From assembly GCF_003334405.1 (NCBI RefSeq), contig NZ_QOWM01000010.1: a stretch of DNA of 64,000 nucleotides. One strand, 5' to 3'. This DNA comes from Escherichia coli. Lineage in GTDB: Bacteria; Pseudomonadota; Gammaproteobacteria; Enterobacterales; Enterobacteriaceae. The notes under the pieces were generated by a model. It made no database searches, had not been told where the DNA came from, and worked only from the letters and a program-made list of their open reading frames with translations. This document shows positions 1-46,890 of the stretch, in pieces (positions within the stretch are counted from its first letter, which is position 1; each line of letters starts with the position of its first letter). A program made the translations under genes and the position numbers.

Positions 1-77
1 ACACCTGCCGAACCCTGGACAATGGGACCGCCATACTGAGTCATATCTCCCTGACGCGCCGCTGGTTTTCCGCTCAT
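1..77 (-). CDS. rhsD: Rhs-family polymorphic toxin, N-terminal 26 codons only (partial; continues beyond left edge of window)
   Basis: Reverse complement of 1..77 starts with ATG at 75..77 and translates MSGKPAARQGDMTQYGGPIVQGSAGV, which I recognise as the conserved Rhs N-terminus. Position immediately downstream of ybbP on the same strand matches rhsD synteny. Too short to appear in the ORF track. Confidence 0.8.
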   Translation of the reverse strand, partial: MSGKPAARQGDMTQYGGPIVQGSAG

Positions 78-507
78 ATAAAGTGCCCTTTTAGTTATTG
101 TTCATATCCCTGTGTTAGCAACAAAAAAAAATAAAATGACACACAAGACCAGCTAATGTATTTATATATTTTTCACATAAACTTATTTGTTCTCAATCAA
201 CAACAACTGTTATTACAGGTCACTTTCAATATTTTATTAAACTAACATTTTTAGCACAGATGAATTCATCATCAACAAATTCACTATATGGATAATATCC
301 ATTCAACGCATATGATTTATGATTTTATTAGTCTGAGTTATTTTTGTAGGGCTATATTTAAAATCAATAAACTCCACCGATTCAGATTAATATCAGCAAT
401 AGAAAGATAGGAAATCACCAATTCAATAACATCATCAATGAAACATATTGTAGAATTAATTTAAACAAGGCGTTCCATTCAACCAGAACGCCCCTTATTT
501 ACTCTCA

Positions 508-2922
508 TCACCCCGCAAACTGCCTGAACAGCGCCTTACCCTTAACCAGTCGCGCACCCAGCCAGCCGCCGAAAAGCGACAGCAGCAGCGCTCCGCTGCA
601 CGGCAGAACAATCCACAATCGCCAGTCTGGCTCCCACGGAAAATCAAACACTTTCGCCTGCAACACTGCCAGCGCCGTTTCCGCACCAATTGCGGCCACC
701 AGGCCGGAAACAAACCCAAGCATGGCGAACTCACACCACAACGTGGTACGCAGCAGTTTTTTCCCCGCACCGAGTGTGCGCCACACCACCAGCTCCTGAT
801 GACGCTGACGCATTCCCACCTGCACCTGTGCCAGCAACAGCAACATACCGCAGGCGGTGACCAGTACCACCATCACTTCCAGCGCCCGACTTACCTGCTC
901 CAGCACCTGACCGACCTGTTTTAAAATCGCGCCAATATCTAACAGGCTAATGGTCGGGAACTGGCGGTTGAGTTGTGTCAACATGCCGTTGCCATTCTCC
1001 CAGCGGAAACTGGTAAGCCAGCTCTGCGGTTGCCCGTCTAATGCCCCTTCAGGGAAAATAAAATAGAAATTAGGCCGCAGACTTTCCCAGTCCACTTTGC
1101 GCAGGCTGGTCACTTTAGCGCGGAACTCCTGGGTATCGCCCATAAAAGTCACGGTATCACCGAGGGCAACGTTTAAGCGTTTCGCCAGCCCCTCTTCCAT
1201 CGACACTTCATCGGCTTTTGGCGGCCAGTTACCGGCGACAATCGGATTATGATCGGGCCGCGTATTTTGCCAGGTAAGATTGAGTTCGCGGTTAAGCGCC
1301 TCATCTTCATTACCTTCTGTCGGCTTATCGTTAATCGCCGTCAGCCGCGCCCGCACCACCGGATAAAACGATTCCGGGACTATCTGATGTTCCGCGAGGA
1401 ACGCTTTTAGCGGTGCTACCTGTTCTGTGGCGATGTTAATTAAAAAGTAGTTCGGGCTTTCTGGAGGTAGCTGCTGCTGCCAGCGGTCGAGCAGATCGCC
1501 ACGCAACACCAGCAGCAGTGCCAGCAGCATAAAGGAGAGCGAAAATGCCGAAAGCTGACTTAACGTTGACCACGGCTGACGTAACAGGCGGCTAACCGCC
1601 AGGCGCAGAGGCAGCGATTTCAGCGTCATGCGGCGAAGTACATTCAGCAGCATCCAGCCCAGCACACCGCACAGCAAAGCCAGTACTACCGCGCCCGCCA
1701 GCACCGCCCAAAGCAGCATGCTGCCACCCATTAATCCGGCGAGCAGCAGCACAACCACCACACTGACAATCGGCAGATAAAACTTCAGCGGCCAGACGTT
1801 CGCTACCACATCATTACGTAATACGCGTAAAGGCTGCGTTGCCAGCAACAAGCGATATGGTCGTAGCCCCACCAGCAGCGAGATGACCGTCATGGTGCCA
1901 AGCGCCCACAGCCACGGCCAGAGGCTGGCTGGCGGTAGTGCAGCAGGCAGAACGGGCTTGAGCAGCACCATCAACACGTTTTCGAACAACAGGCCTATGG
2001 CCCCACCGGTAACGGCTGAAAGCGTCAGCACCATCAACCACTGACCGACGATTAGCTTACGCAGTTGCGCTCGCCCTGCCCCCAGCGTTTTGAGGATCGC
2101 CACCAGATCGTAGCGACTGCGACAGTAATGATTCATCGCTACCGCCACCGCTGCCACTGCCAGCAGCAAGGTCAGAAGCGCCGAAAGCAGCAGGAACTGT
2201 TGCGAGCGTTCCATCGATCGCCCCAGCGCGCCTTCGTCCTGTTCCAGACCGTACCAGCGTTGTTCGGGTTTAAGCTGAGGTAACAACCATTTCTCATAGC
2301 CGTCGAGCTGGTTCTCGTTGCCGCCGAATTTATAACGCCAGGTGACCCGACTCCCCGGCTGCACGGCTCCGGTTTTATCGACATCCGCCAGATTCATCAT
2401 CAGACGCGGAGCCATCTGGAAGGGGTTAAAACCGGAATCCGGTTCCTGAATCACTTCTCCGGCAATCCGCAAGGTGGCATCGCCCACGTCAATGGTGTCG
2501 CCCGTTTTCAGGTTAAGCAGTGCCATCAGGCGTGGGGCCAGCAATACGCTGCCCGCCTGCGGTTTCAGGCCAGGGGGATTAGTTTGCAGATCGCCATACA
2601 TCGGGTAGATATCATCCACCGCTTTGACGTTCGCCAGCTGCGGTGTGTCGCCTGCAAAGGTCATTGTGGCGAAAGTCAGCTGCTTGCCGACTTTCAGGCC
2701 GCGCTTTTGCGCTTCCTCCAGCCACGCTTGCGGCACTTCGCGTGAACTGCGCAACGCCCGATCGCCCGCCATAAACTCACGGCTTTGCTGGCTTAAGCCC
2801 TTCTCCATGCGATCGCTGATATTGCCCAGCGCCAGCACGCAGGCCACCGCCAGGCTTAGCGCCAGCCAGACAATTAATAGCGACGGCGAACGCCATTCGC
2901 GCCAGAACCAACGTGCAATCAT
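508..2922 (-). CDS. ybbP: ABC transporter permease, FtsX/MacB-like, 804 aa
   Basis: ORF track 508..2922 (-), 804 aa with multiple hydrophobic TM stretches and large extracytoplasmic segments typical of MacB/LolE-type permeases. Start overlaps the ybbA stop by 4 nt (operon). Confidence 0.93.
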   Translation of the reverse strand: MIARWFWREWRSPSLLIVWLALSLAVACVLALGNISDRMEKGLSQQSREFMAGDRALRSSREVPQAWLEEAQKRGLKVGKQLTFATMTFAGDTPQLANVKAVDDIYPMYGDLQTNPPGLKPQAGSVLLAPRLMALLNLKTGDTIDVGDATLRIAGEVIQEPDSGFNPFQMAPRLMMNLADVDKTGAVQPGSRVTWRYKFGGNENQLDGYEKWLLPQLKPEQRWYGLEQDEGALGRSMERSQQFLLLSALLTLLLAVAAVAVAMNHYCRSRYDLVAILKTLGAGRAQLRKLIVGQWLMVLTLSAVTGGAIGLLFENVLMVLLKPVLPAALPPASLWPWLWALGTMTVISLLVGLRPYRLLLATQPLRVLRNDVVANVWPLKFYLPIVSVVVVLLLAGLMGGSMLLWAVLAGAVVLALLCGVLGWMLLNVLRRMTLKSLPLRLAVSRLLRQPWSTLSQLSAFSLSFMLLALLLVLRGDLLDRWQQQLPPESPNYFLINIATEQVAPLKAFLAEHQIVPESFYPVVRARLTAINDKPTEGNEDEALNRELNLTWQNTRPDHNPIVAGNWPPKADEVSMEEGLAKRLNVALGDTVTFMGDTQEFRAKVTSLRKVDWESLRPNFYFIFPEGALDGQPQSWLTSFRWENGNGMLTQLNRQFPTISLLDIGAILKQVGQVLEQVSRALEVMVVLVTACGMLLLLAQVQVGMRQRHQELVVWRTLGAGKKLLRTTLWCEFAMLGFVSGLVAAIGAETALAVLQAKVFDFPWEPDWRLWIVLPCSGALLLSLFGGWLGARLVKGKALFRQFAG

Positions 2923-3605
2923 GCTTCCTCCTGCAACTGCCCGTTCACCAGCCGTAAGCAGCGGTCGCAGCGTGCCGCCAGTTGCAGGTCGTGGGTCACC
3001 ATAATCAACGTGGTGCCATGTTCACGGTTGAGGGAAAACAGCAGGTCGGCAATTTTATCGCCCGTCTGGCGGTCAAGGTTGCCGGTGGGTTCGTCGGCAA
3101 ACAGCACATCAGGTCGACCATTAAAGGCTCGTGCCAGCGCCACTCGTTGCTGTTCACCGCCGGAAAGCTGTGCCGGAAGATGATCCAGACGTTTACCCAG
3201 CCCTAACTGTTCGAGCAACGCTTTCGCCCCGTTACGACTTTCCGCGCTACTCTCACCGCGCAGCAGAGCCGGAAGCTCGACGTTTTCCAGCGCGTTAAGG
3301 GTAGGAATTAACATAAATGACTGAAAAACAAAGCCGACGTGCTTCGCGCGCAACTTTGCCCGCGCTTCTTCGTCCATATTATGTAGCGGTTGTCCCACCA
3401 GACTCACTTCGCCACTGCTGCCGTCATCAAGCCCGGCGAGGATCGCCAGCAAGGTTGACTTACCCGATCCCGACTCGCCCACCAGTGCGATGGTCTCGCC
3501 ACGTTTGACAACCAGCTCAACTCCGGTGAGGATGGAGAGTTCATGCTCCCCCTGACCGACGGACTTCTTAAGATGATGAACTTCAACAATGTTTTCCGCT
3601 GGCAT
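2919..3605 (-). CDS. ybbA: ABC transporter ATP-binding protein, 228 aa
   Basis: ORF track 228 aa with Walker A GESGSGKST, ABC signature LSGGEQQR and Walker B DVLFADEP. Confidence 0.95.
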   Translation of the reverse strand: MPAENIVEVHHLKKSVGQGEHELSILTGVELVVKRGETIALVGESGSGKSTLLAILAGLDDGSSGEVSLVGQPLHNMDEEARAKLRAKHVGFVFQSFMLIPTLNALENVELPALLRGESSAESRNGAKALLEQLGLGKRLDHLPAQLSGGEQQRVALARAFNGRPDVLFADEPTGNLDRQTGDKIADLLFSLNREHGTTLIMVTHDLQLAARCDRCLRLVNGQLQEEA

Positions 3606-4199: not shown

Positions 4200-4998
4200 A
4201 GCAACGGAGATCCTGACAGGTAAAGTTATGCAAAAATCGGTCTTAATTACCGGATGTTCCAGTGGAATTGGCCTGGAAAGCGCGCTCGAATTAAAACGCC
4301 AGGGTTTTCATGTGCTGGCAGGTTGCCGGAAACCGGATGATGTTGAGCGCATGAACAGCATGGGATTTACCGGCGTGTTGATCGATCTGGATTCACCAGA
4401 AAGTGTTGATCGCGCAGCCGACGAGGTGATCGCCCTGACCGATAATTGTCTGTATGGGATCTTTAACAATGCCGGATTCGGCATGTATGGCCCCCTTTCC
4501 ACCATCAGCCGTGCGCAGATGGAACAGCAGTTTTCCGCCAACTTTTTCGGCGCACACCAGCTCACCATGCGCCTGTTACCCGCGATGTTACCGCACGGTG
4601 AAGGGCGTATTGTGATGACATCATCGGTGATGGGATTAATCTCCACGCCGGGTCGTGGCGCTTACGCGGCCAGTAAATATGCGCTGGAGGCGTGGTCAGA
4701 CGCACTGCGCATGGAGCTGCGCCACAGCGGAATTAAAGTCAGCCTGATCGAACCCGGTCCCATTCGTACTCGCTTCACCGACAACGTCAACCAGACGCAA
4801 AGTGATAAACCAGTCGAAAATCCCGGCATCGCCGCCCGCTTTACGTTGGGACCGGAAGCGGTGGTGGACAAAGTACGCCATGCTTTTATTAGCGAGAAGC
4901 CGAAGATGCGCTATCCGGTGACGCTGGTGACCTGGGCGGTAATGGTGCTTAAGCGCCTGCTGCCGGGGCGCGTGATGGACAAAATATTGCAGGGGTGA
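4189..4998 (+). CDS. ybbO: Short-chain dehydrogenase/reductase (NAD(P)-binding), 269 aa
   Basis: ORF track 269 aa; Rossmann motif TGCSSGIG and SDR catalytic YAASK. Start overlaps the tesA 3' end by 11 nt. Confidence 0.93.
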   Translation: MTHKATEILTGKVMQKSVLITGCSSGIGLESALELKRQGFHVLAGCRKPDDVERMNSMGFTGVLIDLDSPESVDRAADEVIALTDNCLYGIFNNAGFGMYGPLSTISRAQMEQQFSANFFGAHQLTMRLLPAMLPHGEGRIVMTSSVMGLISTPGRGAYAASKYALEAWSDALRMELRHSGIKVSLIEPGPIRTRFTDNVNQTQSDKPVENPGIAARFTLGPEAVVDKVRHAFISEKPKMRYPVTLVTWAVMVLKRLLPGRVMDKILQG

Positions 4999-10764: not shown

Positions 10765-11697
10765 TCAGCCCTTAAACACGTTATAGCCGAGTTGCTTAGC
10801 GACCGATGCCACCATTTTTTGACCGCGAACACTGTTGCCATCTTCGTCCAGCGGTGGTGAGAACGCGGCAATTCCCATCACTCCAGGGACGACCGCCAGA
10901 ATACCGCCACCTACACCGCTTTTGCCCGGTAAACCAACACGATACGCCCAGTCACCGGAGCGACCATACAGCCCTTCCATCATCATTTCGGCCAGAATGT
11001 ACGGCACGTTGTCGGCCTGAAGAACGCGTTTATGCGTCAACGGATTCACACCACCTGCCGCCAGCGTCGCGCCAAGCGTTGCCAGTTCAATAGTATTGAG
11101 GAGCGTGGAGCACTGACGGGTATACACGTCACAGGCTTCCATTGCATCACAATAGAGATATCCGGCGGAGTACAGCAGCCAGGCTATGGCCCGGTTATGG
11201 AAGTTGGTTGTTTGTTCCGACTGGTTGACTTCGTCAGAGAGCGCTACCTGCTCGCCAGCCAGTTGCTGTTGGATATGTAAAATTCGCTGCCAGCGTTGTT
11301 CAACATTTTCAGCGTTAATCAGGCTGGTGGTGGCAATAGCGCCAGCATTTACCAGTGGCGAAAGCGGTTTGCCGCCATGCAACTCTAAGGCGATAACTGA
11401 GTTAAAGGGCAATCCGGTCGGGTCAGCGCCAATTTTGTCCTGTACCGCCTGCGGGCCGACATCTTCTAACGCAAGGGCTAACGTACAGACTTTCGAGATG
11501 GATTCCAGTGCAAAGCGGTAATCACTGTCACCCGCACTATAGACGTTGCCATCGCAGGTCACGATAGCCACTGCCGCCAGTTGACCTGGTACATTCGCCA
11601 GAAAGGGAATGTAATCGGCATTTTGTCCGCCGTTAAGTGAGTGAAATTGGGTGTAAGCCTGATCCACTGCCTGCTGTAATTTGTTTGCATCTAACAT
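10765..11697 (-). CDS. glsA: Glutaminase 1, 310 aa
   Basis: ORF track 310 aa; serine-dependent beta-lactamase-like glutaminase fold; followed 2 nt later by ybaT (operon). Confidence 0.93.
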   Translation of the reverse strand: MLDANKLQQAVDQAYTQFHSLNGGQNADYIPFLANVPGQLAAVAIVTCDGNVYSAGDSDYRFALESISKVCTLALALEDVGPQAVQDKIGADPTGLPFNSVIALELHGGKPLSPLVNAGAIATTSLINAENVEQRWQRILHIQQQLAGEQVALSDEVNQSEQTTNFHNRAIAWLLYSAGYLYCDAMEACDVYTRQCSTLLNTIELATLGATLAAGGVNPLTHKRVLQADNVPYILAEMMMEGLYGRSGDWAYRVGLPGKSGVGGGILAVVPGVMGIAAFSPPLDEDGNSVRGQKMVASVAKQLGYNVFKG

Positions 11698-11887
11698 CTT
11701 TTGTTAACTCCTTTTTATAGATGCGGGAGGTAATTCCTCACCCCGGTGCCGATTTTCAGGCATCCTGATTTAACTTAGCACCCGCAACTTAACTACAGGA
11801 AAACAAAGAGATAAATGTCTAATCCTGATGCAAATCGAGCCGATTTTTTAATCTTTACGGACTTTTACCCGCCTGGTTTATTAATTT

Positions 11888-11918
11888 CTTGACCTTCCCC
11901 TTGCTGGAAGGTTTAACC
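11888..11918 (+). promoter_or_regulatory. MerR-type copA promoter: -35 TTGACC, CueR operator dyad in a long (about 19 bp) spacer, then the -10 region
   Basis: ttgACCTTCCcctt-GCTGGAAGGTttaacc read directly; perfect 7-bp inverted repeat ACCTTCC / GGAAGGT lying between -35- and -10-like hexamers about 45 bp upstream of the copA ATG. Confidence 0.8.
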
Positions 11919-11958
11919 TTTATCACAGCCAGTCAAAACTGTCTTAAAGGAGTGTTTT

Positions 11959-14463
11959 ATGTCACAAACTATCGACCTGACCCTGGACGGCCTGTCCTGC
12001 GGTCACTGCGTTAAACGCGTGAAAGAAAGTCTTGAACAGCGTCCGGATGTTGAGCAGGCGGATGTGTCTATCACTGAAGCGCACGTTACCGGGACTGCCA
12101 GTGCAGAACAGCTGATCGAAACCATCAAACAAGCGGGTTATGACGCATCTGTAAGCCACCCAAAGGCTAAACCGCTGGCGGAGTCATCAATCCCGTCGGA
12201 AGCACTGACAGCGGTTTCTGAGGCGCTTCCGGCAGCGACCGCCGATGACGATGACAGCCAGCAGTTGCTGCTGAGCGGCATGAGCTGCGCCAGCTGTGTC
12301 ACCCGCGTACAAAATGCGCTGCAAAGCGTACCGGGCGTCACTCAGGCACGGGTAAACCTGGCGGAGCGTACTGCGCTGGTGATGGGCAGTGCCTCCCCAC
12401 AAGATTTAGTGCAGGCGGTGGAAAAAGCGGGCTACGGCGCGGAAGCGATTGAAGATGACGCTAAACGCCGCGAGCGCCAGCAAGAAACCGCCGTCGCTAC
12501 GATGAAGCGCTTCCGCTGGCAGGCAATTGTCGCACTGGCGGTGGGTATCCCGGTGATGGTCTGGGGGATGATCGGCGATAACATGATGGTCACCGCTGAC
12601 AACCGCAGCCTGTGGTTGGTTATCGGCCTGATAACCCTGGCAGTGATGGTTTTCGCCGGCGGCCATTTTTACCGCAGTGCATGGAAAAGCCTGCTGAACG
12701 GTGCGGCGACGATGGATACGCTGGTGGCGCTGGGTACTGGCGTGGCGTGGCTCTATTCGATGAGCGTCAACCTGTGGCCGCAGTGGTTCCCGATGGAAGC
12801 GCGACATCTTTATTACGAAGCCAGCGCGATGATTATCGGTCTGATCAATCTCGGCCATATGCTGGAAGCGCGCGCACGCCAGCGTTCTTCTAAGGCGCTG
12901 GAAAAGTTACTCGATTTAACCCCGCCGACGGCACGCCTGGTTACTGACGAAGGTGAAAAAAGCGTGCCTCTGGCAGAAGTGCAGCCAGGTATGTTGCTGC
13001 GCCTGACGACCGGCGATCGCGTGCCGGTAGATGGCGAGATTACCCAGGGCGAAGCATGGCTGGATGAAGCGATGCTGACGGGCGAACCAATCCCGCAGCA
13101 AAAAGGCGAAGGCGATAGCGTCCATGCCGGGACAGTGGTACAGGACGGCAGTGTGCTGTTTCGTGCCAGTGCGGTTGGCAGCCATACTACGCTGTCACGA
13201 ATCATTCGCATGGTGCGCCAGGCCCAGAGCAGCAAGCCAGAAATCGGTCAGCTGGCGGATAAAATCTCAGCCGTATTTGTGCCGGTAGTGGTGGTTATTG
13301 CGCTTGTCAGTGCGGCAATCTGGTATTTCTTTGGTCCGGCACCGCAGATTGTCTATACCCTGGTGATTGCCACCACGGTACTGATTATTGCCTGTCCGTG
13401 TGCGCTGGGGCTGGCGACGCCGATGTCGATTATTTCCGGCGTCGGGCGGGCGGCTGAGTTTGGCGTGCTGGTGCGGGACGCTGACGCGCTGCAACGCGCC
13501 AGTACACTCGACACTGTAGTGTTCGATAAAACCGGGACGCTGACTGAAGGGAAGCCGCAGGTTGTCGCAGTGAAAACATTTGCTGATGTTGATGAAGCGC
13601 AGGCATTGCGTCTGGCGGCGGCACTGGAGCAAGGTTCCAGCCATCCGCTGGCACGAGCGATCCTCGATAAAGCAGGTGATATGCAGCTACCGCAGGTCAA
13701 CGGTTTCCGCACATTGCGCGGGCTGGGCGTGAGCGGTGAAGCTGAAGGTCATGCGTTATTGCTGGGCAATCAGGCGCTGTTAAATGAGCAACAGGTTGGT
13801 ACCAAAGCTATCGAAGCGGAGATTACTGCTCAGGCATCGCAAGGGGCAACGCCTGTGCTGCTGGCGGTTGACGGGAAAGCGGTAGCCCTGCTGGCAGTAC
13901 GCGATCCGTTGCGTAGTGATAGCGTGGCGGCGCTGCAACGCCTGCATAAAGCGGGATATCGTCTGGTGATGTTGACCGGGGATAACCCAACCACCGCCAA
14001 TGCGATCGCCAAAGAAGCAGGGATTGATGAGGTGATCGCCGGGGTGCTGCCGGACGGTAAAGCCGAAGCGATCAAACATCTGCAAAGTGAAGGACGTCAG
14101 GTGGCAATGGTGGGCGACGGCATTAACGACGCGCCAGCGCTGGCTCAGGCGGATGTCGGCATTGCGATGGGTGGCGGCAGTGATGTTGCCATTGAAACCG
14201 CGGCGATTACCCTGATGCGCCATAGCCTGATGGGCGTTGCGGATGCGCTCGCTATTTCCCGCGCAACGCTGCACAACATGAAGCAGAACCTGCTCGGTGC
14301 GTTTATCTACAACAGTATCGGTATTCCGGTCGCCGCCGGTATTTTGTGGCCGTTCACTGGAACACTGCTTAACCCGGTAGTTGCCGGAGCGGCAATGGCG
14401 CTCTCGTCGATTACCGTAGTGAGTAACGCCAACCGGTTGCTGCGGTTTAAACCGAAGGAATAA
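11959..14463 (+). CDS. copA: Cu(I)-exporting P1B-type ATPase, 834 aa
   Basis: ORF track 834 aa; two N-terminal metal-binding domains (CGHC, CASC), the CPC motif in [12 protein letters not shown], phosphorylation site DKTGTLT and the hinge [12 protein letters not shown]. Confidence 0.97.
12159..12170 (+). other. Programmed -1 ribosomal frameshift site in copA (slippery heptamer C CCA AAG, then a stop in the -1 frame)
   Basis: Heptamer cccaaag at 12159..12165 lies in-frame at codons 68-69; the -1 frame reads CCC AAA GGC TAA, predicting a 70-aa product that contains only the first metal-binding domain. Confidence 0.75.
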
Positions 14464-14469
14464 GTACAT

Positions 14470-14760
<291 letters not shown>

Positions 14761-15257: not shown

Positions 15258-16052
15258 ATGGATCTGTTGTACCGGGTAAAAACGCTTTGGGCCGCGCTGC
15301 GCGGTAATCATTACACCTGGCCTGCCATCGATATCACCCTCCCCGGCAATCGCCATTTTCATCTGATTGGCAGTATTCATATGGGTAGCCACGATATGGC
15401 TCCCCTGCCCACCCGTTTGCTCAAAAAGCTCAAAAACGCCGATGCGCTGATCGTCGAGGCGGATGTTTCCACCAGCGATACGCCTTTTGCTAATTTGCCT
15501 GCCTGCGAGGCGCTGGAAGAGCGCATTAGCGAGGAGCAACTCCAAAACCTGCAGCACATTAGCCAGGAGATGGGCATTTCTCCCTCACTCTTTTCTACCC
15601 AACCGCTGTGGCAAATCGCGATGGTTCTTCAGGCGACGCAGGCACAAAAACTGGGGCTGCGGGCAGAATACGGTATCGATTACCAGCTATTGCAGGCGGC
15701 GAAGCAACAACATAAACCCGTGATTGAACTGGAAGGGGCTGAAAACCAGATTGCCATGTTGCTCCAGCTCCCTGACAAAGGACTGGCGCTGCTGGACGAT
15801 ACGCTGACCCACTGGCATACCAACGCACGGTTGCTGCAACAAATGATGAGCTGGTGGCTGAATGCACCGCCGCAAAATAATGATATAACGCTGCCCAATA
15901 CGTTCAGTCAGTCGCTGTACGATGTGCTGATGCATCAGCGAAATCTCGCCTGGCGGGATAAATTACGCGCCATGCCGCCGGGGCGATATGTGGTCGCGGT
16001 CGGTGCACTACACCTGTATGGAGAAGGGAATTTGCCGCAAATGTTGCGCTAA
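15258..16052 (+). CDS. ybaP: TraB/GumN-family protein, 264 aa
   Basis: ORF track 264 aa; family assignment from memory of the K-12 annotation, not from an identifiable motif in the sequence. Confidence 0.88.
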   Translation: MDLLYRVKTLWAALRGNHYTWPAIDITLPGNRHFHLIGSIHMGSHDMAPLPTRLLKKLKNADALIVEADVSTSDTPFANLPACEALEERISEEQLQNLQHISQEMGISPSLFSTQPLWQIAMVLQATQAQKLGLRAEYGIDYQLLQAAKQQHKPVIELEGAENQIAMLLQLPDKGLALLDDTLTHWHTNARLLQQMMSWWLNAPPQNNDITLPNTFSQSLYDVLMHQRNLAWRDKLRAMPPGRYVVAVGALHLYGEGNLPQMLR

Positions 16053-16134
16053 AAAAATGGCCAATATCGCTATTGGCCCGTCAAAGAGGAATTTCATTTT
16101 TTTATTATTATGCCGTCACTTTAAGCGACGGTGT
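16051..16134 (-). ncRNA. chiX: Hfq-dependent small RNA ChiX (also called MicM/SroB)
   Basis: Reverse complement of 16051..16134 reads ACACCGTCGCTTAAAGTGACGGCATAATAATAAAAAAATGAAATTCCTCTTTGACGGGCCAATAGCGATATTGGCCATTTTTTT, matching my memory of ChiX, with an intrinsic terminator hairpin (GGCCAATAGCGATATTGGCC) and U-tract. Confidence 0.85.
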
Positions 16135-21807: not shown

Positions 21808-21896
21808 TATGTAGGCATGATAAGACGCGCCAGCGTCGCATCAGGCATCGAGAGCCAAATGCCAGATGCGGCGTGAATGCCTTATCTGGCCTACGA
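21808..21896. repeat. BIME/REP element (two inverted REP palindromes) between ybaL and gsk
   Basis: gtaggcatgataagacgcgccagcgtcgcatcaggcat ... gccagatgcggcgtgaatgccttatctggcctac read directly. Confidence 0.85.
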
Positions 21897-29314: not shown

Positions 29315-31246
29315 TCAAATGGGGCGGATACTTTCTTCATCCAGCTCCGCATCGAAGAACCGACGCAGGGTCTGAATATTATTATCCGCAATAATGGACT
29401 CGCGCGCCTGCGCAAGTTTTTCTTCGTATATCGCCTGACGCCACTCCAGCGGCGTACGCACCGCGGGATTATCATCTTCAACGATAGTCAGTTCAACCGT
29501 TGAACCTTTTAACATGCTCAACGCTTCAGCCAGTTTTTGCTGTGCACCGCGGTTGTTCAAATGCCGCTGAGAGGAGCGCAAATGCAGACATACTGCGTTG
29601 TCGCTCTCCTCTTTCCAGGCATTTAACGCCACCTGTTCGACCAGTTTTGGTAGCGAAAGTTGGCTCACCTGTGCCGCCCACGGGTCGCGCTCAATGGCTT
29701 CTGCCGCTAGCTTCGCCGCCAGTTCCGGCGTTTTTTCATGTTCCAGCGCTTTTTTCAGCGCCTTCGGCGTGGCGACCACTTCTTTTTGCTGCATCACCGG
29801 AGTGGTCGCCTTCCAGCGATACGCTTCTTTTTTGGCTGGCGCTTTTTCCAGCGCCGATGGCACCGGACGCGCCTGAACGCGATCGGTGACCGAAGCCAGT
29901 CTTTCCAGCGCAGCGTTATTCACCGGCCGCGCGCGGGTAGCGGCTGCCGGTTCACTCTTTTTTGCTTTGGTTGCTCCCTGCACGCGCTGCAACTGCTGGC
30001 GCGCCGCCAGCACCTGGCTGGTGGTTTCCGGGAGCGGTACAGTCGGTGCCTGCTGCGGCGCTGATTGCGGTTGCGGCGGCACCTGGGTTGGCGTCATTAC
30101 TGCCGTTGGCGCGACGGGTGCAAAGGACTGTCGTGGCACTTCTGGCTCAGGCAGCGGCATACGCGGATGGAATGCCAGCGCGCGCAGCAGCGTCATCTCA
30201 ACGCCCATGCGACGGTCCGGCGCATACGGTAATTCTTTGCGACCAATCAACAGCGTCTGATAGTAAAGCTGAATATCCGTCGGCGGTATGGTGCGCGCCA
30301 GTTCACGCATCCGCAGCTCGATGGCGGCCATGTCGTTGCCAAGTGCAGCAGGCGAAAGTTGTACCATCGCAATACGATGCAACAGGCCGAGCATTTCCAC
30401 CAGCAACGCTTCCCACTCGATACCACGGGCAGCGGCTTCATTAATCAGCGCCATTACGCGCTCGCCGTTGGCCTCGACCATCGCTTCAACCAGCGACAGC
30501 GCCTGATCGTCGTCAAGCGTACCCAGCATCGCACTGACCGCCTGGGTTGAAACCTGGCCGTCACCGCTGGCAATCGCCTGGTCGGTCAGACTTAAGGCAT
30601 CTCGCAGGCTGCCTTCAGCGGCGCGTGCCAGCAATTGCAGCGCCCGCGGCTCGTGAGCGATATGTTCTTCGTTGAGGATGTGCTCAAGCTGATGGCGAAT
30701 TTGCTCGACATCCAGCGCCTTGAGATGAAATTGCAGACAGCGTGACAAAATCGTCACCGGCAATTTCTGTGGATCGGTCGTCGCCAGCAGAAACTTAACG
30801 TGCTCCGGCGGCTCTTCAAGGGTTTTTAACAGTGCGTTAAAGCTGTGGCGCGACAGCATATGCACTTCGTCGATCAGATAAACTTTGAAACGACCACGCG
30901 CCGGAGCGTACTGGACGTTATCCAGCAGGTCGCGGGTATCTTCAACTTTGGTGCGCGAGGCGGCGTCGATTTCAATCAGATCGACAAAGCGCCCCTGCTC
31001 GATTTCACGACAGTTATCGCACACGCCGCACGGCGTCGCGGTAATGCCGGTTTCGCAGTTTAGCCCCTTCGCCAGCAGTCGGGCGATAGAGGTTTTTCCG
31101 ACGCCACGGGTGCCGGAAAAAAGATAAGCATGATGAATACGCCCTAACGACAAGCCGTTCGCCAGTGCGGTCAGCACATGTTCCTGGCCGACGACGTCAG
31201 CAAAGGTTTGTGGGCGCCATTTTCGGGCTAAGACCTGATAACTCAT
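29315..31246 (-). CDS. dnaX: DNA polymerase III subunits tau/gamma, 643 aa (tau)
   Basis: ORF track 643 aa; AAA+ clamp-loader motifs (GTRGVGKTS Walker A, zinc module CGVCDNC). Confidence 0.97.
   Translation of the reverse strand: MSYQVLARKWRPQTFADVVGQEHVLTALANGLSLGRIHHAYLFSGTRGVGKTSIARLLAKGLNCETGITATPCGVCDNCREIEQGRFVDLIEIDAASRTKVEDTRDLLDNVQYAPARGRFKVYLIDEVHMLSRHSFNALLKTLEEPPEHVKFLLATTDPQKLPVTILSRCLQFHLKALDVEQIRHQLEHILNEEHIAHEPRALQLLARAAEGSLRDALSLTDQAIASGDGQVSTQAVSAMLGTLDDDQALSLVEAMVEANGERVMALINEAAARGIEWEALLVEMLGLLHRIAMVQLSPAALGNDMAAIELRMRELARTIPPTDIQLYYQTLLIGRKELPYAPDRRMGVEMTLLRALAFHPRMPLPEPEVPRQSFAPVAPTAVMTPTQVPPQPQSAPQQAPTVPLPETTSQVLAARQQLQRVQGATKAKKSEPAAATRARPVNNAALERLASVTDRVQARPVPSALEKAPAKKEAYRWKATTPVMQQKEVVATPKALKKALEHEKTPELAAKLAAEAIERDPWAAQVSQLSLPKLVEQVALNAWKEESDNAVCLHLRSSQRHLNNRGAQQKLAEALSMLKGSTVELTIVEDDNPAVRTPLEWRQAIYEEKLAQARESIIADNNIQTLRRFFDAELDEESIRPI
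29957..29963 (-). other. Programmed -1 ribosomal frameshift site of dnaX (A AAA AAG), which yields the gamma subunit
   Basis: Minus strand reads GCAACCAAAGCAAAAAAGAGTGAA; the heptamer is in-frame at Lys429-Lys430 and the -1 frame reads AAA AAA GAG TGA (stop). Confidence 0.85.
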
Positions 31247-38931: not shown

Positions 38932-42084
<3,153 letters not shown>

Positions 42085-42629
42085 TACAACGTGTAATCAC
42101 TAAGGCCGCGTAAGCGGCCTTTTTTATGCATAACCTACGAACATTAAGGAGTAATTGAACCACCAACTCAGGATCTCATACGAAAACCAGTATTAACCAC
42201 GGATAAAATTCATAAAAAATACTGATTGTTAGTTAATTTATATTAAGTAGCGCTAATAGATTTAATAATCCATAATCATTTAGAGGCTATTCTTAATTAT
42301 TTGCGGTAATTCTTTATTCATTCCTCGGTTATTACGTCATATTCAGAGCAATCCTGGTATTAGTGTCACCAATTTCATCTGGCGATAATCCTGAAATGTT
42401 ATGAATAGTTCGAGCAAACTGCTTTTACCTGCTGCGGGTTAGTGCTAGTATGAAAAAGTGAGTCCTGTCCCGCTTCCTTCCTAATTGTAATTTTTCGTAA
42501 TAATGCGATGAAAACCTGCAAAGAGTGGCTTATAGTTAAGCTAACAAACGAGAGGGCAAGTCCAGGTCAGTAAGTTTTTTCCATCCCGAAAGGTGTCCGT
42601 TAGTTCAACCGCTAAGAAGGGGACGCGTT

Positions 42630-46776: not shown

Positions 46777-46890
46777 GGGTGGGGGCCCTGCCAGCTACAT
46801 CCCGGCACACGCGTCATCTGCCTTGGCTGCTTCCTTCCGGACCTGACCTGGTAAACAGAGTAGCGTTGCGGGAGAACCAACAGAGCCCCC
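46777..46890 (-). ncRNA. ffs: 4.5S RNA, the signal recognition particle RNA (114 nt)
   Basis: Reverse complement of 46777..46890 matches, base for base, the 4.5S RNA sequence as I recall it (GGGGGCTCTGTTGGTTCTCCCGCAACGC...GGCAGGGCCCCCACCC), including the conserved domain IV GGAA tetraloop region. ORF-track entries overlapping it are spurious. Confidence 0.95.

Follow-up and report, generated by a model that had tools for sequence, protein, structure and literature searches.

The left edge of this DNA raises two connected questions: whether the short minus-strand reading found there is the beginning of a complete Rhs element, and what the conspicuously AT-rich DNA between it and ybbP represents. 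The window (the whole stretch of 64,000 nucleotides that was analysed) holds 25 codons of rhsD; the core, the toxin tip and the immunity gene were read from identical or near-identical reference genomes. We concluded that the left edge very probably shows the E. coli RhsD element at its upstream end, with the rhsD start and its AT-rich leader. The feature is already known, in the form of an annotated rhsD start and a spacer catalogued as an H-NS-bound promoter island. Coordinates of the individual features are collected in Table 1.

Table 1. Features at the left edge of the window, in window positions, with strand and evidence.
Feature	Position	Strand	Evidence
rhsD, 5' end	1..77	-	Translation; annotation of identical genomes; same 77 nt heading a vgrG-linked rhs paralogue
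AT-rich ybbP-rhsD spacer, rhsD promoter/leader region, published H-NS target	78..507	-	Composition; literature
Putative Shine-Dalgarno-like AAGGG, 8 nt upstream of the rhsD ATG	86..90	-	Sequence reading
Promoter island 522099_304, as mapped on the window	160..463		PMC3661553; presumed conversion x = 522562 - x
Second promoter-like site, TTGAGA-17-AAAAAT	168..196	-	Consensus scan; not significant alone
Predicted sigma-70 promoter, TTAATA-17-TGTAAT (-35 at 240..235, -10 at 217..212)	212..240	-	Motif prediction in PMC3946193
Intrinsic-terminator-like hairpin (GGGGCGTTC...GAACGCCTT) with T-rich tail, just downstream of ybbP	457..494	-	Terminator scan
Junction of core DNA (ybbP) and variable effector island	503..510		Partial-match starts; three-strain alignment
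ybbP, 804 aa, putative ABC transporter permease, core flank	508-2922	-	ORF list; annotation

Read on the minus strand, positions 77..1 encode rhsD codons 1-25 and two bases of codon 26, giving the translation MSGKPAARQGDMTQYGGPIVQGSAG. The ATG lies at 75-77 and the reading begins ATG AGC GGA AAA CCA GCG GCG CGT (reverse complement of window 1-77). The leftover bases GT fix residue 26 as Val, and the 26-residue string reported in the initial annotation was exact. The same annotation had taken these 77 nt for a conserved Rhs N-terminus on the minus strand; both the translation and the records of 100%-identical genomes, where the 77 nt are annotated as the start of rhsD, confirm this. The conservation is also real, since MSGKPAARQGDMTQYGGPIVQGSAG is identical in the RhsD proteins of K-12 and O157:H7 and the same 77 nt head paralogous rhs genes of other strains at 100% identity.

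The sequence around this start is that of K-12. Window positions 1-3000 are 100% identical to MG1655 and to many other strains, in which they are annotated as ybbA, ybbP and rhsD. When 12 kb were compared with the MG1655 record NZ_CP032667.1, a single difference was found at position 4701 inside ybbO, and a 25-kb query against K-12-like strains gave identity rounding to 100.0%. Over these 25 kb a few natural isolates are about one mismatch better than the K-12 records, and the source assembly may be other than the exact K-12 record NZ_CP032667.1. Compared with the K-12 RhsD element (rhsD-ybbC-ylbH..., between ybbP and mnmH/ybbB), the sequence, start codon and leader are identical and the order ybbA-ybbP-430 bp-rhsD is the same; no difference was detected, and the window ends 77 nt into rhsD. 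In both MG1655 (L001) and the best-matching natural isolate EH09-18-41 (L007) the rhsD frame is 4281 nt long. The reading frame therefore neither stops early nor lacks an Rhs core (RHS_core) in these two 100%-identical genomes.

GC content drops from 0.584 in 1-77 to 0.284 in 78-507 and is 0.576 in ybbP. Successive 100-bp windows from the window start give 0.52, 0.26, 0.27, 0.27, 0.32 and 0.63, which agrees with the earlier description of the segment as strikingly AT-rich compared with its flanks. The spacer between ybbP and rhsD is exactly 430 bp long and is the lowest-GC 430-bp stretch in the 64 kb (mean 0.523, sd 0.045), well above the average in AT content; equally AT-rich 430-bp windows make up 0.013% of the 64 kb and all of them overlap the leader site. 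TpA steps occur at 10.5 per 100 nt in the leader vs 4.2 in the whole window. Repeats in 1-700 are just short two-copy matches of 10-22 nt, as expected by chance in AT-rich DNA. Not all of the spacer belongs to rhsD: its ybbP-proximal ~40 bp (494..457) is the ybbP terminator and not rhsD leader. The terminator-like hairpin sits within the accessory segment, and in ST131 its place is taken by another hairpin.

The initial annotation had called the locus accessory, and its distribution within the species upholds this description. Among 5426 complete E. coli genomes, ybbP occurs in 5414 but the leader adjoins it in only 2884, so that leader and rhsD are found in ~53% of complete genomes with the break at the ybbP stop codon (508-510). 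In leader-less genomes the matches start at query positions 421-432 of window 78-1100, which correspond to window 498-509, and when K-12, ST131 and a strain carrying IS1 are aligned, the junction falls within ~5 bp of that stop codon. The far junction of the island lies in the last 3-4 codons of mnmH. At the ybbP-mnmH slot, ST131 strain 4433 (L002 7839-11841) carries a gene for a 667-aa "Hcp family type VI secretion system effector" and three DUF2931 genes. Since K-12 has the RhsD element there and ST131 has the Hcp-effector and DUF2931 genes, the site where the 3' ends of ybbP and mnmH face each other is, judging from the sequences compared, a variable island. The two contents seen, an Rhs element and a gene carrying the annotation of an Hcp-family T6SS effector, are both of toxin type. 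The leader itself is 98-100% identical among the listed genomes that carry it, the spread sample included.

Copies of IS1 were noticed within the matched regions of several strains (matches H1, H46 and H53). In strain PSS-10 (L003), an IS1 copy (11248-11945) abuts the end of ybbP and rhsD is gone; the ybbP ORF of this strain (11979-14414) is annotated 21 nt longer than K-12 ybbP.

An H-NS-silenced locus had been expected from the base composition, and the part of this expectation that concerns occupancy rests on published data. Panyukov and Ozoline (2013) list "ybbP(+)/rhsD(+) 522099_304" among 78 promoter islands (PMC3661553, Table 1). According to its flags, the entry overlaps with predicted foreign genes and with a predicted genomic island; its H-NS code "A" stands for binding in all the ChIP data sets compared, those of Grainger, Kahramanoglou and Oshima (PMC3661553). 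We mapped the island on the window from match H19 (record 522055-522561 = window 1-507), on the assumption that the numbering in the paper is the same. In the sites tabulated by Shimada et al. (PMC3946193), an RpoD holoenzyme site detected in vitro between ybbP and rhsD is likewise flagged "HNS", and the promoter TTAATA-17-TGTAAT is proposed for rhsD. This motif has a single exact match in the window, where 0.01 would be expected, and implies an rhsD 5' UTR of ~128 nt. The promoter used by rhsD would then be this predicted site at 240..212 (minus strand).

A sigma-70 consensus scan of 1-700 found no excess of promoter-like sites (2 sites vs 1.7 ± 1.3 in shuffles). The leader is listed among the promoter islands, regions of at least 300 bp with an exceptional density of promoter-like signals, in the table of PMC3661553, whereas the excess is absent from the simple consensus scan used here; the algorithms differ. 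The H-NS consensus TCGATAAATT has two matches at ≤2 mismatches, a density ~4-fold that of the remaining window; this is about what AT-richness alone would give and adds no information beyond it. In the parts of the literature on rhsD and H-NS that were covered, occupancy alone is documented and derepression of rhsD in an hns mutant was not found. Of the earlier claim, occupancy by H-NS (PMC3661553; PMC3946193) can be retained, and repression of rhsD by H-NS is what we would infer from it.

The Salmonella Typhimurium SPI-6 T6SS/rhs locus resembles rhsD in that an Rhs toxin lies in AT-rich acquired DNA, and it is reported to be H-NS-silenced, as shown experimentally (cited in PMC7043789). It is, however, a different locus in a different species and, unlike rhsD, has a complete T6SS alongside. 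As a separate observation, the second most AT-rich stretch of the window, at ~42030-42620 (minimum 430-bp GC 0.34), is the acrB / tomB-hha spacer of MG1655, which is also listed as an RpoD site with an HNS flag in the table of Shimada et al. (PMC3946193).

The rest of the protein was examined on the MG1655 reference gene, which lies outside the window for all but its first codons. RhsD of MG1655 (L001) has 1426 aa. It matches the NCBIfam equivalog RHS_core over residues 1-1258 with 2787.7 bits, above the cut-off of 2000, as well as Rhs_assc_core and, in six stretches, YD_repeat_2x. Pfam finds DUF6531 at residues 46-123, 15 matches of RHS_repeat (9 of them at E ≤ 0.001) and the RHS domain. The core is closed at residue 1258 by PLQQIDPMGL, which has the PxxxxDPxGL form of the boundary, and the C-terminal tip beyond it is DUF4329 (Pfam, 2e-37), carrying YHTHGADS...SSSD. 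DUF4329 corresponds to Tox-JAB-2, a domain whose signature is H[ST]H, S, D and for which a nuclease activity was suggested by Zhang et al. (PMC3482391).

The next gene, ybbC, lies 39 nt downstream of rhsD and matches Pfam Imm-NTF2-2 at 6.8e-26. Imm-NTF2-2 is an immunity family paired with Tox-JAB-2/DUF4329 (Zhang et al.; PMC3482391), and ybbC would be the putative immunity gene of the K-12 DUF4329/Tox-JAB-2 tip. A literature search for RhsD, ybbC and immunity gave no match and no protection assay was found in it. The initial annotation had placed a variable toxin tip and an immunity gene just beyond the window. Their existence was borne out in the reference genomes (PLQQIDPMGL, DUF4329, ybbC), but "just beyond" has to be corrected: the tip begins ~3.8 kb past the window edge and ybbC ends ~4.7 kb past it.

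That the tip is variable can be seen from a comparison with O157:H7 strain F8798, in which the site of rhsD is occupied by an Rhs gene behind a leader of 99.0% identity. The two proteins share 94% identity up to DPxGL and are unrelated beyond it, so both the PxxxxDPxGL boundary and the variable C-terminal tip are present in RhsD. The main tip of the O157:H7 Rhs protein is 99% identical to an orphan fragment located downstream of ybbC in K-12 (L006 4881-9077 vs L001 3679-4365). Because the O157:H7 main tip survives in K-12 as a mere orphan fragment, this arrangement indicates, at the level of sequence, that in K-12 the DUF4329/ybbC module took the place of an older tip. The switch between K-12 and O157:H7 is a textbook case of tip displacement in polymorphic toxins. 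Downstream of the orphan Rhs tip in K-12 (L001 3208-3698, minus strand) there are two small ORFs of 86 and 57 aa, each of which matches one half of the same 163-position NCBIfam model (PRK14710.1-3). The pattern points to a gene that was split and that may have encoded the immunity protein of the orphan tip.

We also asked how the N-terminal segment might link RhsD to type VI secretion. The letters P-A-A-R stand at residues 5-8, and there are two weak matches: one, not significant, to Pfam PAAR (PF05488; E=0.27, RhsD residues 3-20 on model positions 52-69 of 70) and one to the C-terminal end of SalCis10, a 99-residue chain (9rce_c; E=0.21). The closest solved relative of RhsD is Tse5 of P. aeruginosa (PA2684; PDB 8cp6, 9i9y), with E=1.2e-18 over RhsD 48-169. 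In both proteins, P-V-N-P and a DUF6531 plug come after a short N-terminal segment. Tse5 is cut between K47 and P48, its N-terminal fragment M1-K47 is called a PAAR-like domain, and it is reported to work via the VgrG spike (PMC10684867). The deposited Tse5 shell chain starts at the residue aligned to RhsD P48, and by alignment the K47/P48 cleavage site faces N47/P48 of RhsD. By analogy, the RhsD N-terminus would be a short PAAR-like segment of ~47 residues that docks on VgrG, and the window would carry roughly the first half of this spike-docking segment. The two proteins differ in their toxins, that of Tse5 being a pore former and the RhsD tip being DUF4329/Tox-JAB-2. They also differ in their surroundings, as Tse5 is reported to act through VgrG whereas rhsD is without an adjacent vgrG.

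Between mnmH and ybbP of MG1655 there is no vgrG, and no vgrG, chaperone or T6SS gene was found adjacent to rhsD, which has been called an orphan outside the vgrG islands (PMC7216683). Such linkage does exist for a paralogue. At the yncH-pptA locus of FDAARGOS_433, vgrG is followed after 68 bp by an rhs gene that shares its first 77 nt with the window at 100% identity. Like rhsD, it has an Rhs core, a small ORF at the expected position of the immunity gene and an orphan tip fragment; unlike rhsD, it has no AT-rich leader. Aligned directly, the two loci lose their similarity precisely at the ATG, and therefore the AT-rich leader is specific to the ybbP-side locus and lies outside the conserved Rhs unit. 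No leader homology was found upstream of other rhs copies, and the megablast matches outside the rhsD locus cover just 1-77. RhsD would be delivered by a T6SS. K-12 is not known to have a T6SS, and delivery of RhsD would for this reason be inoperable in K-12.

Taken together, we propose the following model. The reading at 77..1 on the minus strand would start a 1426-aa Rhs/YD-repeat polymorphic toxin, built in the order of a PAAR-like segment (~47 residues), a DUF6531 plug, a YD-repeat cage, an aspartyl-protease/PxxxxDPxGL region and, at the C-terminus, a toxin that can be exchanged. Judged by its Tse5 counterpart in P. aeruginosa, the PAAR-like segment would dock RhsD on the VgrG spike of a T6SS. 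The leader (78-507) would be horizontally acquired AT-rich DNA that travels with rhsD. Followed from the ybbP side, it would begin with the ybbP terminator and continue with ~350 bp rich in promoters, the part to which the literature assigns RNA polymerase binding in vitro and H-NS coverage in vivo. From this combination of polymerase binding and H-NS coverage, rhsD is expected to be largely silent in laboratory K-12.

Could the 25 codons be a dead remnant, with the Rhs frame of the source strain cut short or interrupted shortly past the window edge? Such events do occur at this site: the locus is rearranged in some strains with a near-identical leader, IS1 is inserted in the region in matches H1, H46 and H53, rhsD has been lost in PSS-10 (L003), and in a B-strain derivative (H27) the gene is annotated merely as "DUF6531 domain-containing protein". 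We nevertheless regard a remnant as highly improbable, given that both 100%-identical genomes inspected, MG1655 and EH09-18-41, have an intact 4281-nt rhsD and that the window itself is one base off the MG1655 record in 12 kb and K-12-like at ~100.0% over 25 kb. A hidden gene in the spacer, encoding a small RNA or protein, is equally improbable. Inside 156-421 of a spacer that is long by E. coli standards there are four ORFs of 26-40 aa; these ORFs, however, are of the size expected at 28% GC, two of them start with TTG, and none of the small ORFs is annotated in the RefSeq records inspected. On the RNA side, positions 1-3000 matched no Rfam family even with the threshold relaxed to E ≤ 1, and the putative 158-nt 5' UTR plus start folds no better than shuffled sequence (z = +1.17).

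A different explanation accepts the rhsD start and takes the spacer for inert filler or a recombination scar, bound by H-NS through its AT-richness alone, with rhsD expression governed elsewhere. One option under this explanation is that internal promoters before the tip drive the tip and immunity gene as a toxin-antitoxin-like pair, as reported in Salmonella, where internal promoters located 89 nt upstream of the PxxxxDPxGL-coding region of rhs yield ~100-fold more transcript than the full-length promoter (PMC7043789). The intact state of rhsD in a strain without adjacent vgrG and the lack of enrichment in the simple promoter scan are in line with it. Internal promoters, however, would add to an upstream promoter and need not exclude one; RNA polymerase holoenzyme binds the spacer in vitro at a site whose promoter is assigned to rhsD in the tabulated data (PMC3946193), a Shine-Dalgarno-like site and an ATG follow directly after the spacer, and the leader keeps its 98-100% identity in the listed carriers. 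We consider an inert spacer quite unlikely. A bolder reading has two parts. The leader would be a portable silencing and insulating cassette that moves with rhsD, terminates ybbP and nucleates H-NS, so that the toxin is expressed under anti-silencing conditions only; and rhsD would be kept for a T6SS-independent role, with the tip expressed in a toxin-antitoxin-like manner from internal promoters, as in Salmonella. Both parts would extend known principles, and that they hold jointly seems to us unlikely. The preferred reading is still an rhsD start preceded by an acquired leader that contains the rhsD promoter.

As to significance, the exact edge of a variable effector island is fixed at the ybbP stop codon, and an Rhs start with an H-NS-type AT-rich leader proves recognisable from raw sequence. 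Rhs toxins, the exchange of C-terminal tips and the coating of acquired DNA by H-NS are already in the literature, and the importance of the locus beyond its correct annotation is small.

Elsewhere in the window, Rfam matches at the gathering score include a DnaX frameshift element, the sroB small RNA, the 4.5S/SRP RNA and three naRNA4 copies, with match positions at 29918-29982 (minus strand), 16051-16134 (minus strand), 46786-46882 (minus strand), 14575-14753 and 21814-21891. All of them are expected for this region of K-12.
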